From sequence record MW822008.1: DNA of 64,000 nucleotides. One strand, given 5' to 3'. The notes under the pieces were generated by a model that worked only from the letters and a program-made list of their open reading frames with translations, was not told the origin of the DNA and did no database searches. The translations under genes and the position numbers were made by a program. Source of the DNA: Escherichia phage BF17. Shown one piece after another: positions 24,714 to 28,822 of this stretch. How positions within the stretch are numbered: the first letter of the stretch is position 1; the number at the start of each line of letters is the position of its first letter.

Positions 24714-25568
24714 TTGTATATGTTAGACATTTCAGATTTTCTTAATTTTAAAAAGTATTCAGTACTTGAACATATCAACGAATTTCTGAATTCTACTACA
24801 CCATTTGGTATCAGTACATCAGATGCATACGATGGATATACAATCTTCCCATACAATGACTTTCAAATTTCCGTCAAAAAAGGTATTACAAAAGAAGTTG
24901 CAATTCGTGATGTAGTAATGTATAGCGATTCTTCTATTTCTTACTGTCATGATGTGAACAAGTTTGAATCTCTTGCAACACCTAATTGTTCATACTACAA
25001 ATCCCATGACACGATGATGTATAAAGAACAACATATCAATGGTGTTTCGTTCTATAAAACTAGCAGTGATAAATCATATACATCTAGAGATGATTTTGGA
25101 AAATACACATGTACTATGCACACGGATAATGAAAAAACAAATTACACTCATTCATTCGAGTCCAAATTCCAAGAGAGTGAAGTTTCAAATATCACTATAC
25201 AAGAACAGGTTTCAGAAGGCATTGTATATCGTAGCACTGCATTCTTTCGCATGAAAGATATTGCCACAGGCAGACCAATGATGTACAATATTGATATATA
25301 CATGAAAGGTGATATATCCGAAGTAGTGATTAGTACTGGTTATCGTGAAAAATATACAGTTACAATGGAATCACCAGATGCATCATTAGTTCACCTCTTT
25401 AACAATTTATATACATTCCAATTCGAACTTAGTTTCGATCCAAATGAATATCAAATATTTGATATATTAAAAAGTAATATTATTAATAAGTTAGAATATT
25501 ACTACAAGTTAGGTGGTAAGATGTGCATAGTTAATACTATGTTACATAACATAAAAGAAACATTATAA
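24714..25568 (+). CDS. hypothetical protein
   Basis: 284 aa track ORF. Confidence 0.55.
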   Translation: MYMLDISDFLNFKKYSVLEHINEFLNSTTPFGISTSDAYDGYTIFPYNDFQISVKKGITKEVAIRDVVMYSDSSISYCHDVNKFESLATPNCSYYKSHDTMMYKEQHINGVSFYKTSSDKSYTSRDDFGKYTCTMHTDNEKTNYTHSFESKFQESEVSNITIQEQVSEGIVYRSTAFFRMKDIATGRPMMYNIDIYMKGDISEVVISTGYREKYTVTMESPDASLVHLFNNLYTFQFELSFDPNEYQIFDILKSNIINKLEYYYKLGGKMCIVNTMLHNIKETL

Positions 25569-25584
25569 ATCTGGAGGATTTGGT

Positions 25585-25878
25585 ATGGATACTAAATTCA
25601 AAATTATTTTTAAAACTAAGCCGTATATTCCACATACAGCAGAACGTTTTATACCACATGGTGCTGAGGAAATTATTCACCAAGATGGTACTAAGTTATA
25701 CCTTGTTCCTTGTTCTTATGAACGTGCAGTAGAAATGTTACTAATGAATGCTAGACTATGCAAAAACAAGTACATTAGTTACCTATACAATGAACATATT
25801 TTAGATTTCAATGATGAAAATATGTTCATTCTAGCAATCGAGGATTTTGATAACTGGTACAATATTATTAAAATCTAA
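25585..25878 (+). CDS. hypothetical protein
   Basis: 97 aa track ORF with GGAGG RBS. Confidence 0.5.
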   Translation: MDTKFKIIFKTKPYIPHTAERFIPHGAEEIIHQDGTKLYLVPCSYERAVEMLLMNARLCKNKYISYLYNEHILDFNDENMFILAIEDFDNWYNIIKI

Positions 25879-25886
25879 TGAAAATA

Positions 25887-25925
25887 ATGTGAACATATTA
25901 GATTCTTGTGATATAATGTTCACAT
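25887..25925 (+). promoter_or_regulatory. early promoter -10 embedded in 10-bp inverted repeat
   Basis: atgtgaacat (25887-25896) and atgttcacat (25916-25925) flank TGaTATAAT (-10 at 25912-25917). Confidence 0.45.
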
Positions 25926-25949
25926 CTTTTTTTGATAACGGAGATATAG

Positions 25950-26336
25950 ATGAATACAAGTTCAATCCTAAAAGCAATTGGTGGTGTTTTACTCATTGAA
26001 GTAAAAGGTGAGCCAAAGCTATGCTGTTTAGAAGATATGAAGAATACAAAACACTTCAGTACTGGTCAGATTTTCAATGCCATTCGTATTCTAAATGACA
26101 AATCCATTGCTGATTATGGAAAAGTTTGGCCTGTATATCAAAATGCTGATGGTGATATCAGTACTGATTGGAAAACAATTGAGGCGGTACGACAAAGTTG
26201 TGAGAGTGATTGGGACTTCATTGTTGAAGTTTGTGATCAACTACAAGAAGATGTTCCAGAAATTGTCGAACGAAAAGAAGTCCTAGCACGACTTGAAAAA
26301 TTCCGTCACGGAACACTACAGTATAACACAATCTAA
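25950..26336 (+). CDS. hypothetical protein
   Basis: 128 aa track ORF; GGAG RBS. Confidence 0.5.
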   Translation: MNTSSILKAIGGVLLIEVKGEPKLCCLEDMKNTKHFSTGQIFNAIRILNDKSIADYGKVWPVYQNADGDISTDWKTIEAVRQSCESDWDFIVEVCDQLQEDVPEIVERKEVLARLEKFRHGTLQYNTI

Positions 26337-26385
26337 TCTGCTTATTAAAAATATCTAATTAACATTATATAAAAGGAATTTAAAA

Positions 26386-26691
26386 ATGGAAGACAATGGA
26401 ATGAAATTTGATATGTTTGAAGGTGTACCAGAGTTCGATTTCAACAAACTTGAAGAAGGTGAGGAATCAGAACTAGTCAGTGTTACACTTAAAGCAGATT
26501 CTAAGAAGAAATATTCATCAGCAGTACGTTCACGTTCACAAGAAGAATACGAAACATTTATTGAAAGTATTCATTATGAAACATTCCATCATGCAGATGG
26601 AACTCCATATGAAGTACGTGTAACAGTACTGAAGCCTGAAGTAAATCCAATGGAAAATCTACGTCCTGTTTACTGCTGGGCAAGTCACTAA
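26386..26691 (+). CDS. hypothetical protein
   Basis: 101 aa track ORF; AAGGA RBS. Confidence 0.5.
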   Translation: MEDNGMKFDMFEGVPEFDFNKLEEGEESELVSVTLKADSKKKYSSAVRSRSQEEYETFIESIHYETFHHADGTPYEVRVTVLKPEVNPMENLRPVYCWASH

Positions 26692-26698
26692 TAAACCA

Positions 26699-26731
26699 AA
26701 GGACGGGATTTGTTATCTCGTCCTTTTTTTG
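26699..26731 (+). terminator. intrinsic terminator
   Basis: aggacg...cgtcct hairpin followed by TTTTTTT. Confidence 0.55.
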
Positions 26732-26742
26732 TCTGGAGATGT

Positions 26743-27597
26743 ATGAAACTTTATCTAATCGTTGACTACAATAAGGATTATGCTGGTAACTTCACCGAAG
26801 ATTCGGATGGATATTGCACATCGACTAATGTCAATGTACGTAGCAGTAGTGCTCATGAACATGAATCTTGTAAAAATCTAAAAGATTTTATCGCATACCG
26901 AGCATTTGAAAAGAACTTCTGCCGCAGTAGATATTCGAAGTTTGAGTACCCGTTAATTGATGTTCCTGATGATTTAATGTTCCAGTTAATGCTAACTGGA
27001 GTTCAAGATTATGATTACATAGCATATAATCATATTACTAAGAAAATTTATATTGGTACATCATCACATGACACTTCTATGTATGCATCATGCCCAGATG
27101 ATCGAATGAATGATAGAAAATCATACTATAGTGGATCAGTTGGTTTAAATGATTCATTAAATGAAAATTTATTCTTTGAGTATGTTTATGATTACCATCA
27201 TGAGAAAAAAGAACGTGAAGATTACTGTATAGCAATTGATAGTACTAATGGGTATGAAGACGTGAAAGAAGCACTTATGCCGTACATTATTGAAAAGTAC
27301 TACAAAGATTTTCAGTACTGTAGTAATTTTCTAATCAGAAATTCTATTATAATCGGTCGCCAATCTAGTGCATACTCTCAGTACTATAATGATTCACCAG
27401 TAGCATCGGCAAATGAAATGTGTGATATTTTACAAATTCCACGTGAAGATATGGCATTCATTTTTACATCTTTTATTGAAGATGATGAGTTGTATATTAA
27501 AAATAAACACCGTTTCATGCCAAGCAAGATTGAGGTTATTCGAAGTTTTAGTGTTGATATACTAACAAATTTCACAGAAAAAACCGAATATAACTGA
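26743..27597 (+). CDS. hypothetical protein, FQ-motif paralog family
   Basis: Track ORF 26710..27597; ATG 26743 after GGAG and downstream of terminator; motif DDLMFQLMLTGV. Confidence 0.55.
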   Translation: MKLYLIVDYNKDYAGNFTEDSDGYCTSTNVNVRSSSAHEHESCKNLKDFIAYRAFEKNFCRSRYSKFEYPLIDVPDDLMFQLMLTGVQDYDYIAYNHITKKIYIGTSSHDTSMYASCPDDRMNDRKSYYSGSVGLNDSLNENLFFEYVYDYHHEKKEREDYCIAIDSTNGYEDVKEALMPYIIEKYYKDFQYCSNFLIRNSIIIGRQSSAYSQYYNDSPVASANEMCDILQIPREDMAFIFTSFIEDDELYIKNKHRFMPSKIEVIRSFSVDILTNFTEKTEYN

Positions 27598-27625
27598 GAC
27601 AAATGATAAGTTAATGATATAATAT

Positions 27626-27660
27626 AAGGTGACAACATAATATGTTAGTCACCTTTTTTT
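27626..27660 (+). terminator. intrinsic terminator
   Basis: ggtgacaacat / atgttagtcacc stem (one bulge) followed by TTTTTTT; TGATATAAT sits just upstream. Confidence 0.6.
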
Positions 27661-28200
27661 AATCCTGAAAGGTTCCCATAAGGAAATGATTAAAAGCCTA
27701 ATCCACTCGAAAATGTAGAGGGTAGATGAGTAGTCCTTTCAGTACGAACAGCAGATGAAACCCGTTAGATGATGGCATAGTTTGAACCACTCACGGCAAT
27801 GCGGCTGTATAAAGAACTCCAATAGGATAAAGAGAGTTCCTCGATAGACATATAAGGATCGCACCTTACCAATTATCTAAGGGAGATTTCATAAGAAATA
27901 TGCGGTCGGAATTATACAATATAGTTGCGTCCAAATTTTGTGAAATCAAATACAAGTACTGGTCATATGGTATTTGTATTATGTGTCGGGATGTTTAAGA
28001 CCGACGACCGTTGCTACAAGAACCGCGATAGAGAGAAACAGAGCAACCCGCTTTCGTCTCGTAAGAGAATTCGTGATATGAACTATGTGAAGGCCACCAG
28101 CGTCAAACTTTTTTGTTCTTTCCCCTGCGGGGGGGATGAAATATGCTCAAGCAAACCCCGTCAATATTAATTAAAAGAAAATAGTACTTGTAGAATTAGA
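27661..28200. other. ORF-poor, GC-richer region; candidate structured non-coding RNA or decayed insert
   Basis: No ORF of 60 aa or more except one implausible Cys/Arg-rich TTG-start frame; local GC well above flanks; several short stems; no tRNA T-loop or group I P7 found. Confidence 0.25.
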
Positions 28201-28201
28201 C

Positions 28202-28822
28202 ATGCGTAGCATGGTAATTCTACTGATGTTGATGAAATCAACGTCACGTATATTCATTGATGTTTCCATAGGAATAATGATGGCATTTATTAGAAAAGAA
28301 AAAACTGTTACTTATAAAACTTTGAATTTTGATGATTGCATTAATCAATCACAAGACGAAGATATCTTTACTGGATATGTGGTTATTAAAGAAAAAGGAT
28401 GCATTTCTTATATAAAGGAATTGCAAAATGGAATTGAAGTGACTTCAGTTAAATTACTTCCTACTCAAAAACCAACAATATCAAAAGCCCAGTATGGTAA
28501 TTATTTTGAAGAAAGATATAGTAATAATTCAATAAGTGTTAAGGCTCATATTATTAAAGGAGAACTAGAAGGAGAATATAGAAAATACAACCCACAAGGA
28601 AAATGTGTTTGGGTTAAATACTTCAATTCAGGATATGATGTAACATCTGAAATTATAGAGTTCTTAGGTTTAAAATGTACCCCTGAGACTATTCACGATT
28701 ATAAGTTCAATACTGAAGAAGAGTTTAATCTGATGATGCGTTACGGTTCACATTTTAAATTTTTATATGAATATAACATTGACAGTAGTACTTTTGATAA
28801 GATAGTACACAACTGTCTCTAA
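28202..28822 (+). CDS. hypothetical protein with MORN/YwqK-like repeat
   Basis: Track ORF; segment GEYRKYNPQGKCVWVKYFNSG resembles MORN-type repeat; no clear RBS, start uncertain. Confidence 0.45.
   Translation: MRSMVILLMLMKSTSRIFIDVSIGIMMAFIRKEKTVTYKTLNFDDCINQSQDEDIFTGYVVIKEKGCISYIKELQNGIEVTSVKLLPTQKPTISKAQYGNYFEERYSNNSISVKAHIIKGELEGEYRKYNPQGKCVWVKYFNSGYDVTSEIIEFLGLKCTPETIHDYKFNTEEEFNLMMRYGSHFKFLYEYNIDSSTFDKIVHNCL

Follow-up and report, generated by a model that had tools for sequence, protein, structure and literature searches.

Evidence for a large, pseudoknot-rich RNA gene in jumbo phages and bacterial chromosomal islands

A 64,000-nucleotide (nt) stretch of the Escherichia phage BF17 genome (sequence record MW822008.1), referred to here as the window, carries an intergenic element on its plus strand that is almost certainly a gene for a structured non-coding RNA (ncRNA), with the RNA body at positions 27663–28172. 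The element is best read as a stand-alone ncRNA gene of about 500 nt, from an undescribed family, whose product is proposed to act in trans as a folded particle; we put the probability of this reading as a whole at about 0.55. The body is the only significant match to the family profile in the window (nhmmer, E = 6e-118). Neither blastn nor nhmmer detected a further copy there, the other three paralogues lying outside the window.

The RNA family and its architecture have no detectable relative and are new within the literature and the Rfam collection that were searched, a coverage that is not exhaustive; as a kind, the large ornate RNA of mobile elements, the RNA has precedents. Rfam 15 (4227 covariance models, including those for ROOL, GOLLD, HEARO, OLE, raiA, RNase P, 6S, group I and II introns and ribozymes) gave no match at the gathering threshold anywhere in the window. 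At a threshold of E = 10, the segment 27400–28400 returned only noise (E = 0.46–9.6) on the terminator hairpin and the flanks, and five bacterial loci with related copies were also without Rfam matches. The Infernal/Rfam scan proposed in an initial annotation of this DNA thus assigned the element to no family. The same annotation had seen neither a tRNA nor a group I intron, in agreement with Rfam and with ARAGORN, which found no tRNA or tmRNA gene in the window. No description of the RNA was found in the literature on large or structured RNAs of jumbo phages, and the genome papers of phages CBB and fEgEco12 do not mention it.

The initial annotation had described an island poor in open reading frames (ORFs) and richer in guanine plus cytosine (GC) than its flanks, behind a terminator, and had offered a structured RNA or a decayed mobile insert as explanations. 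The gap between genes (27598–28279) indeed contains no conserved reading frame. The TTG-initiated ORF of 81 amino acids (aa) at 27925–28170 is open in only one of 54 homologues, and length differences among the homologues fall into all three classes modulo 3; no conserved open frame of a coding gene or pseudogene was found, the translated frames having had no protein search. The GC content of the element is 0.412, compared with a mean of 0.329 for windows of equal length (standard deviation 0.032; 0.4% of them as high) and with 0.30 and 0.28 in the two flanks. Of the two short stems singled out at that stage, the C4/G6–7 hairpin is present at 28122–28135, and the GAACTC/GAGTTC stem also exists, although it lies at 27814–19/27834–39, about 11 nt from the originally assigned start at 27803. 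Beyond the reach of that annotation were the three further paralogues in each genome and the relatives in bacterial chromosomal islands.

Covarying structure of the plus strand

Members of the family are 450–590 nt long. With positions 27640–28200 as the query, about 500 nt were matched at ~70% identity in distant Rak2-like jumbo phages, namely Salmonella 7t3/Munch, Klebsiella fENko-Kae01, Yersinia fHe-Yen9-04, Serratia BF, Erwinia pEa_SNUABM, Cronobacter GAP32, Pectobacterium CBB, and Xanthomonas XbC2 and XaC1. This level of identity spans Asteriusvirus, Mimasvirus, Eneladusvirus and the 7t3/Munch-like phages; the RaK2 copy is divergent.

The structure was tested on a MAFFT alignment of 55 sequences with at most 96% identity to each other. 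RNAalifold produced a poor structure from the raw 599-column alignment and was replaced by a scan of all column pairs for stacked covarying pairs, followed by manual curation, which gave 106 base pairs in 22 helices. Five hundred shuffled alignments and structures with the 3′ partners slid by 1–3 columns served as controls. Standard pairs occupy 88.6% of the cells, compared with 71.3% after shuffling (none of the 500 shuffles reaches the observed value) and 36–45% after sliding. Changes on both sides are seen in 78 of the 106 pairs (60 shuffled, 42–47 slid) and in 895 individual cells (270 shuffled, 117–177 slid), and the covariation score is 0.432 (0.156 shuffled, at most 0.108 slid). Helices P2, P3, Py, Pa, Pb, Pc, PK-B and PK-C are 98–100% paired with several pair types, and the paralogues display near-identical blocks between stems whose two sides vary together. 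In the well-aligned helices, G·U combinations outnumber A·C combinations by 213 to 41 (~5:1), an excess that argues for folding of the plus strand and is a poor fit to a site in duplex DNA.

As read from this alignment, the plus strand shows about 20 helices and at least three well-supported pseudoknots (PK-B, the crossing of Pa over Pb and Pc, and PK-C); PK-A is probably a fourth. Two regions contribute little to these counts. The P0 hairpin was left out of the formal pair count because the alignment there is too poor, and the count for P7 and PK-A is weak because MAFFT aligns that region poorly. The structured RNA put forward as a candidate in the initial annotation is therefore strongly supported by the comparison that it had itself suggested, through conservation and covarying pairs in related phages. 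Its alternative of a decayed mobile insert is contradicted by the shared position in five phage genera, by purifying selection for structure, and by the lack of a conserved ORF and of signs of decay.

The individual parts of the RNA are listed in Table 1. The most conserved positions of the family are not in the helices but in unpaired junction strands; the highly conserved or invariant unpaired strands that join helices are GGCAAUGCGGC, GAUAGACAUAUA, UAAGGGA, GACCGUUG and AACCCGC. A hairpin module with the loop UACAAUAUAGAUCCGUC is present once in the window copy. In many relatives a second module of this kind takes the place of the GNRA tetraloop of Pd, which points to a modular tertiary-contact element. 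Toward the 3′ end, Pz varies mostly by one-sided C-to-U changes that keep a G·U pair, with rare changes on both sides in two of its five pairs. The two AYCnnCGUCAR boxes, for which no pairing partner was found, may be a repeated protein-binding or tertiary-contact site. They vary in parallel, reading CGUCAA in Asteriusvirus, CGUCAG in most other members and CUUCAA in both boxes of RaK2. Pairings of these boxes with the 5′ leader, and of the GCGG strand (27801–04) with CCGU strands, were considered and lost support once RaK2 and other lineages were taken into account.

Table 1. Features of the RNA gene in the window and positions of the four copies in phage 121Q (window coordinates unless 121Q is named).
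Feature	Position	Strand	Support or remark
Extended -10 promoter element TGATATAAT	27615–27623	+	Promoter scan; putative promoter of the RNA gene
Terminator-like hairpin GGTGAC/GTCACC (27628–27653) and T-run (27654–27660)	27628–27660	+	Sequence; ARNOLD terminator in G17
ncRNA body	27663–28172	+	nhmmer family profile; blastn, 70% identity over ~500 nt to distant jumbo phages
P0, small 5′ hairpin UUCC/GGAA	27673–27685	+	Hairpin of differing sequence here in every lineage
P1a and P1b hairpin, conserved loop GAAAAUGUA	27698–27725	+	8/8 pairs change on both sides; CUG/CAG alternates with CUA/UAG
P2 hairpin	27730–27745	+	100% paired; middle pair UA, AU, CG
P3 around P4 and variable P5 arm; conserved strands AAACCCGUUAG and CACGGCAAUGCGGCU	27748–27808	+	P3 100% paired, 4/5 pairs covary; P4 96% paired; P5 apex pair UA, AU, CG, GC
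PK-C, 3-bp pseudoknot, AUG 27799–27801 with CAU 27849–27851	27799–27851	+	98% paired; crosses P3; GC to AU in 12 sequences, UA to CG or GU in 3
P6 hairpin (GAACTC/GAGTTC)	27814–27839	+	6/6 pairs covary, up to 4 pair types per position; 93% paired
P7 hairpin 27853–57/27864–68; P7 loop 27858–63 pairs with 27901–06 (PK-A)	27853–27906	+	PK-A seen by eye in >8 lineages: AUCGCA/UGCGGU, GAUACUAC/GUAGUAUC, GAUGCA/UGCAUC
Junction UAAGGGA	27878–27884	+	Longest invariant run of the family (AAGGGA columns invariant in alignment)
Py 27885–91/27941–47 around P8 27908–13/27934–39; conserved 17-nt P8 loop UACAAUAUAGUUGCGUC	27885–27947	+	Py 98% paired, 3/3 outer pairs covary; P8 module duplicated in many members
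P9, long hairpin	27949–27980	+	11/11 pairs change on both sides; 92% paired
PK-B pseudoknot, P9 loop 27962–68 with 28076–82	27962–28082	+	98% paired, 7/7 pairs covary; 11 distinct versions of the 7-nt loop strand across the family, each with complementary partner
P10 hairpin, loop containing conserved UAAGA	27985–28005	+	Stem forms GUCGG/CCGAC, ACAC/GUGU, GUAG/CUAC, GUGG/CCAC, CAAG/CUUG (by eye)
Pseudoknotted 3′ core: Pa 28010–14/28043–47 crosses Pb 28024–28/28071–75 and Pc 28031–35/28051–55	28010–28075	+	Pa 100%, Pb 99.3%, Pc 100% paired; 3, 5 and 3 compensatory pairs
Pd, GUAA tetraloop cap	28057–60/28065–68	+	Within 3′ core; 88% paired, 3 compensatory pairs
First AYCnnCGUCAR box	28096–28106	+	Alignment
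Pz hairpin UCCCC...GGGGGA, invariant G-run	28121–28136	+	91% paired
Second CGUCAR box, last conserved block of the family	28155–28164	+	Paralogue similarity stops after the box
Two downstream hairpins: GTAGAATT...AATTCTAC 28190–28223; GTTGAT-GAA-ATCAAC 28228–28242	28190–28242	+	Sequence; membership in the RNA uncertain
121Q copy A	121Q 192,787–193,346	+	The copy in the window
121Q copy B	121Q 90,332–90,783	+	After sigma-factor gene 167
121Q copy C	121Q 247,513–248,041	+	Under a small, probably spurious, minus-strand coding sequence
121Q copy D	121Q 326,676–327,149	+	Between two minus-strand genes

Transcription signals, genomic setting and distribution

The 801 bases queried at the locus are 99.5–99.9% identical to those of the Asteriusvirus jumbo phages 121Q, G17, phAPEC6 and PBECO4 (~350 kb), and the window corresponds to ~164.7–228 kb of 121Q. 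The element is preceded by an array of paralogous genes (24714–27597; its end is 121Q gene 415). The last of these, a 295-aa gene, stops at 27597, directly before the RNA promoter. Downstream of the element come genes for a hypothetical protein, a Dam methylase and a cytidylyltransferase. The next ORF is open from 28202, and the start annotated in G17 corresponds to ~28277–28280 and has an AGGA ribosome-binding site; the two hairpins downstream of the RNA extend over position 28202, an overlap that favors the G17 start as the real one. In both 121Q and G17 the same gap of ~610–680 bp is unannotated, apart from a predicted terminator at its beginning.

The -10 element TGATATAAT that the initial annotation had noticed directly before the terminator hairpin is present, and is an extended -10. 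Of 82 distinct members, 75 have a TGnTAYAMT box in the 160 nt before the core (median distance 59 nt; background 0.033 per 160 nt), and phage and bacterial copies do not differ in this respect. Promoters of the extended -10 type need no phage factor, from which we infer that host sigma-70 RNA polymerase transcribes the RNA from the 27615–23 promoter from the first minutes of infection, and that expression from the islands is constitutive.

The hairpin at 27628–27660 ends the upstream array gene and falls within the RNA leader; a simple terminator scan missed it because its loop is long. Compensatory changes preserve it in the syntenic GAP32, CBB, XbC2 and fHe-Yen9-04 copies, and it is absent from the other paralogues, such that a terminator hairpin and U-run between the -10 box and the RNA body are seen only at the A position, in four genera. 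This hairpin could be an attenuator, or transcription may start inside it. At the other end, a terminator-like hairpin is found in the first 300 nt after the RNA in only 11 of 85 copies. Given this scarcity of intrinsic terminators, the 3′ end of the RNA is probably produced by processing or by Rho- or other factor-dependent termination, or its position is not constant. The 200 nt that follow 36–48 of the 85 copies include hairpins whose loops have GAACGnnGUGA or GCGAAGC-like motifs, compared with a background of 0.01–0.08 per 200 nt.

Each of the distant phages listed above has four to five matching places in its genome, and Rak2-like jumbo phages overall contain three to five dispersed, co-oriented paralogues. 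The complete 121Q genome has four copies, all on the plus strand and 55–110 kb apart. The position of copy A is the same in GAP32, CBB, XbC2 and fHe-Yen9-04 and is occupied by a divergent form in RaK2, and is thus common to five genera. Pattern scans of IMG/VR gave matches mainly on contigs of ~350–380 kb; on every multi-copy jumbo contig examined the copies are co-oriented and tens of kb apart. No protein gene is consistently adjacent to the RNA in the phages, and the downstream genes differ between paralogues. Some paralogues are closer to each other than to their orthologues: CBB copy A clusters with the ~335–340 kb copies of GAP32, CBB and BF, and the uncultivated virus genome 3300042256 is likewise a case in which paralogues at different positions are more alike than orthologues. 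Within-genome gene conversion between copies is suggested by these sequences. Several phage records carry small coding sequences over the RNA, for example the hypothetical 121Q gene 516 on the opposite strand of one copy, and up to four to six small 'hypothetical protein' entries under the RNA match in SHEFM2K, E9.1, JP4, WPEC3 and WPEC5; all are probably annotation artefacts. A second gene-free stretch of 2 kb in 121Q (135,194–137,161), outside the window, proved to be unrelated and is crowded with CAGTACTGA-type short repeats and GC-rich hairpins.

A single degenerate pattern for the 3′ core found 72 loci in metagenomes and nine in bacterial assemblies, of which nhmmer confirmed 70 and eight, respectively. 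In total, 76 distinct full-length sequences were collected, in 44 clusters at 90% identity. Full-length bacterial copies are present in the complete chromosome of Serratia fonticola GTA-SR07, on contigs of Enterobacter chinensis, Silvania hatchlandensis, Serratia sp. 2723 and an Enterobacteriaceae isolate, and on contigs of metagenome-assembled genomes labeled Buttiauxella, Enterobacteriaceae and Clostridium (the last a contig of 2.8 kb). Among 5,426 complete E. coli genomes, two have a copy; that of strain LR-29-1 is in an island of ~11 kb beside ffs, within a 1.4-kb stretch that has no PGAP annotation. No match was found in 72,556 PLSDB plasmids.

The islands have one copy each, in most cases adjoining an integrase gene. 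In the commonest layout, with the RNA on the plus strand, a large serine recombinase or tyrosine integrase gene is followed by the RNA, by a CI-like HTH/S24 repressor gene on the opposite strand, and then by core genes for a winged-helix (HTH_35) protein, which is taken to be Ner-like, a 286-aa membrane protein, an LprI-like protein and a small serine recombinase, with variable cargo. The cargo includes KwaB (Kiwa) in two metagenome loci and DarT in one. On the basis of these three loci, the elements are regarded as small mobile defense islands with a core of the RNA, the CI-like repressor, the winged-helix, membrane and LprI-like proteins, and a resolvase. The DarT island also has a 465-aa ORF that appears helicase-like by eye. 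The S. fonticola copy is at the outermost edge of its element, with the chromosomal genes rof and tilS on one side and two ParB/RepB-like genes and a serine recombinase gene on the other. A search for a partner protein gave none: the only island gene that recurs downstream on the same strand is that of the 286-aa membrane protein (F1), which has no phage homologue. Between the integrase gene and the promoter of the RNA, ~120–150 nt before the core, three bacterial islands have a near-perfect 13-bp inverted repeat, CCCTATAAATATC-GG-TAGATATTTATAGGG, which could be an operator, an int terminator or part of an attachment site. Exchange between phages and islands is suggested by phage XaC1, whose copy shares 75% identity with that of the Enterobacter island.

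Possible functions of the RNA

The favored mechanism is that the RNA would be made early and act in trans as a compact folded particle, serving as a scaffold, as a sponge for a host or phage factor, or as a self-assembling ornate RNA like ROOL and GOLLD. The several paralogues would raise the RNA dose, and the invariant junction strands would form a binding or tertiary core around which the variable helices need only pair. The particle is favored on the grounds of resemblance to ROOL and GOLLD, in that the fold is complex, its junctions are invariant, no partner gene accompanies it and its carriers are phages and integrated elements; for this part taken separately, we consider the chances to be about even. 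Several observations weigh against the reading. No transcript is on record, and a literature search found no RNA-seq study of these phages. The folding energy is unexceptional (minimum-free-energy z = -0.94), i.e., the stems are no stabler than expected by chance; the signal is thus in conservation and covariation, and stability alone would not have flagged the region. In the window copy, the terminator hairpin between the promoter and the body makes expression from that promoter uncertain, and the absence of a terminator from 74 of 85 copies is unusual for an abundant stable RNA. The dispersed, co-oriented copies, of which at least A keeps its position across genera, fit a role in cis at least as well as one in dosage, and the results point to no binding partner or activity.

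The main alternative is an origin-priming RNA, which we regard as tentative and on balance unlikely. Each copy would be a replication origin, where a persistent R-loop at the 3′ end of the RNA would be converted into a leading-strand primer by RNase H or the replisome, on the model of ColE1 RNA II and T4 oriF/oriG, and the RNA-bearing islands would be replicated, like satellites, by an infecting jumbo phage. The number, spacing and constant orientation of the copies, each with its own promoter, the conserved position of copy A, the scarcity of terminators, an invariant G-run close to the 3′ end, and stable hairpins with GAA loops beyond it would all suit an origin; moreover, the replication proteins of these phages are of the T4 type, RNase H and a UvsW-like helicase among them, and the islands have no obvious replication gene. 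However, about 20 covarying helices, at least three pseudoknots and invariant junctions far exceed the needs of known primer RNAs, and there are no iterons or conserved AT-rich unwinding element beyond the RNA. The absence of the family from plasmids shows that it is not a general host-driven replicon. The GC skew of 121Q has no inflection at the copies, but it follows gene orientation and tells little about origins, and such inflections are rare in T4-like genomes. A self-splicing, self-cleaving or retro-mobile RNA without an ORF, dispersed among sites, phages and islands, is improbable. It would explain the multiple copies in both jumbo phages and islands, the similarity between the XaC1 and Enterobacter copies, and the hairpin module duplicated inside some members, and the strand order of the 3′ core (Pa5′-Pb5′-Pc5′-Pa3′-Pc3′-Pd-Pb3′) resembles the P3/P7/P8 order of group I introns. 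Nonetheless, the element interrupts no gene but is intergenic, preceded by the stop codon and the terminator of the upstream gene; the place of the P4–P6 domain of a group I intron, between Pa and Pb, is taken by just 9 nt; no group I, group II or ribozyme model matched even at E = 10; and neither a reverse transcriptase nor a homing endonuclease gene is adjacent. The synteny of copy A in five genera also implies that it is not recently mobile.

The two remaining explanations are less probable still. As a cis-regulatory leader or attenuator, the element would control the hypothetical gene, Dam methylase and cytidylyltransferase downstream, in keeping with its place before a co-oriented operon, the promoter-proximal terminator at the start of the window copy and the lack of a terminator after most copies. 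We consider this very improbable, since the genes after other paralogues are unrelated to these, the genes that follow 121Q copy D and the bacterial copies are convergent, and the genes downstream of several copies have a consensus sigma-70 promoter of their own, which argues that the RNA is not the leader of the next gene; at ~500 nt, it is also several times the size of any known riboswitch or leader. Least credible is a repeat that acts only as DNA (an array of protein sites or a recombination site) or the remnant of a decayed gene. Multiple copies, and the integrase gene beside most island copies, could be expected of such a repeat, but not compensatory changes that preserve pairing in ~20 helices, a tolerance of G·U over A·C that is foreign to sites in double-stranded DNA, or a conserved dedicated promoter, while a decayed gene is contradicted by the lack of a conserved frame and by indels that do not come in threes.

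Two further proposals go beyond these readings. One, which is speculative and which we do not expect to hold, is that the RNA is a handle common to giant phages and to the chromosomal islands that oppose or exploit such phages. For the phages it would be essential, either as an early RNA particle or as an origin RNA. In islands with a CI/S24-type repressor and with Kiwa or DarT, where the RNA copy lies beside the integrase gene, it could be a decoy that titrates a phage factor binding the RNA, and thus an RNA-based defense against jumbo phages; alternatively, the island copy could let an infecting jumbo phage replicate or mobilize the island, and such islands would be the first satellites of jumbo phages. 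The other, independent of the first, is that an RNA-only multimer may self-assemble through PK-B pairing, with paralogue-specific PK-B sequences preventing the mixing of paralogues.

To our knowledge, only about a dozen classes of bacterial or phage ncRNA longer than 300 nt have been recognized, and each large class that has been characterized had a fundamental or unexpected job, as in the ribosome, RNase P, tmRNA, the IscB guide RNAs and RNA-only cages. The present family is a further large class, unusually dense in pseudoknots, and it is tractable, being found in the culturable E. coli phages 121Q, PBECO4, phAPEC6 and G17 and in complete E. coli and Serratia chromosomes. Its distribution joins 350-kb phages with several copies to integrase-bearing islands with one copy, several of them with anti-phage genes, which hints at a role in their conflict or cooperation. 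In addition, it corrects the annotation of several phage records in which spurious small hypothetical coding sequences occupy RNA genes.

Comparison with known RNAs

Among known RNAs, tmRNA has a similar length (350–400 nt) and a string of H-type pseudoknots, but the present RNA has no tRNA-like domain, no tag reading frame and no match in Rfam or ARAGORN. ColE1 RNA II and the T4 oriF/oriG transcripts are also non-coding and ~500 nt long, start from a promoter of their own and have a G-rich segment close to the 3′ end; T4 origins are likewise several per genome, in a phage whose type of replication genes is found here. In 75 of 82 copies of the present family a promoter is placed ~0.5 kb before the 3′ end, as in RNA II. 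In contrast, there is no sequence relation to either, the present RNA is far more structured and pseudoknotted, the plasmids searched do not carry the family, and no antisense partner like RNA I was identified.

The nearest experimental precedent for abundant ORF-free transcripts in this phage group comes from the related giant phage PA5oct, in which RNA-seq revealed four ORF-free regions of 236–619 nt on the plus strand (ncRNA001–004), two of them highly expressed throughout infection (PMC7318152). Homology of ncRNA001 and ncRNA002 to the present family was considered and rejected, as nhmmer gave nothing below E = 2.8 in PA5oct positions 1–30000, a comparison that covers these two and not ncRNA003 and ncRNA004; the composition of ncRNA002 also differs by eye.

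The closest analogues in kind are ROOL and GOLLD, large 'ornate' RNAs that are carried by phages and prophages and assemble into multimeric cages made of RNA alone (PMC12286853). Like them, the present RNA is several hundred nt long, with many covarying helices and pseudoknots, is carried by phages and integrated elements, has no coding capacity and lacks a partner protein gene; unlike either, it is not matched by their Rfam models. ROOL and GOLLD are usually single-copy and near tRNA genes, whereas this RNA has three to five dispersed paralogues and no tRNA gene nearby, and the likeness drawn here is one of sequence features. A parallel for PK-B is the pRNA of phi29. That RNA is shorter (~120–174 nt), single-copy and confined to phi29-like phages, but it too is a structured phage RNA whose function needs covarying loop–loop pairing, and PK-B exists in mutually exclusive complementary versions that often differ between the paralogues of one genome.

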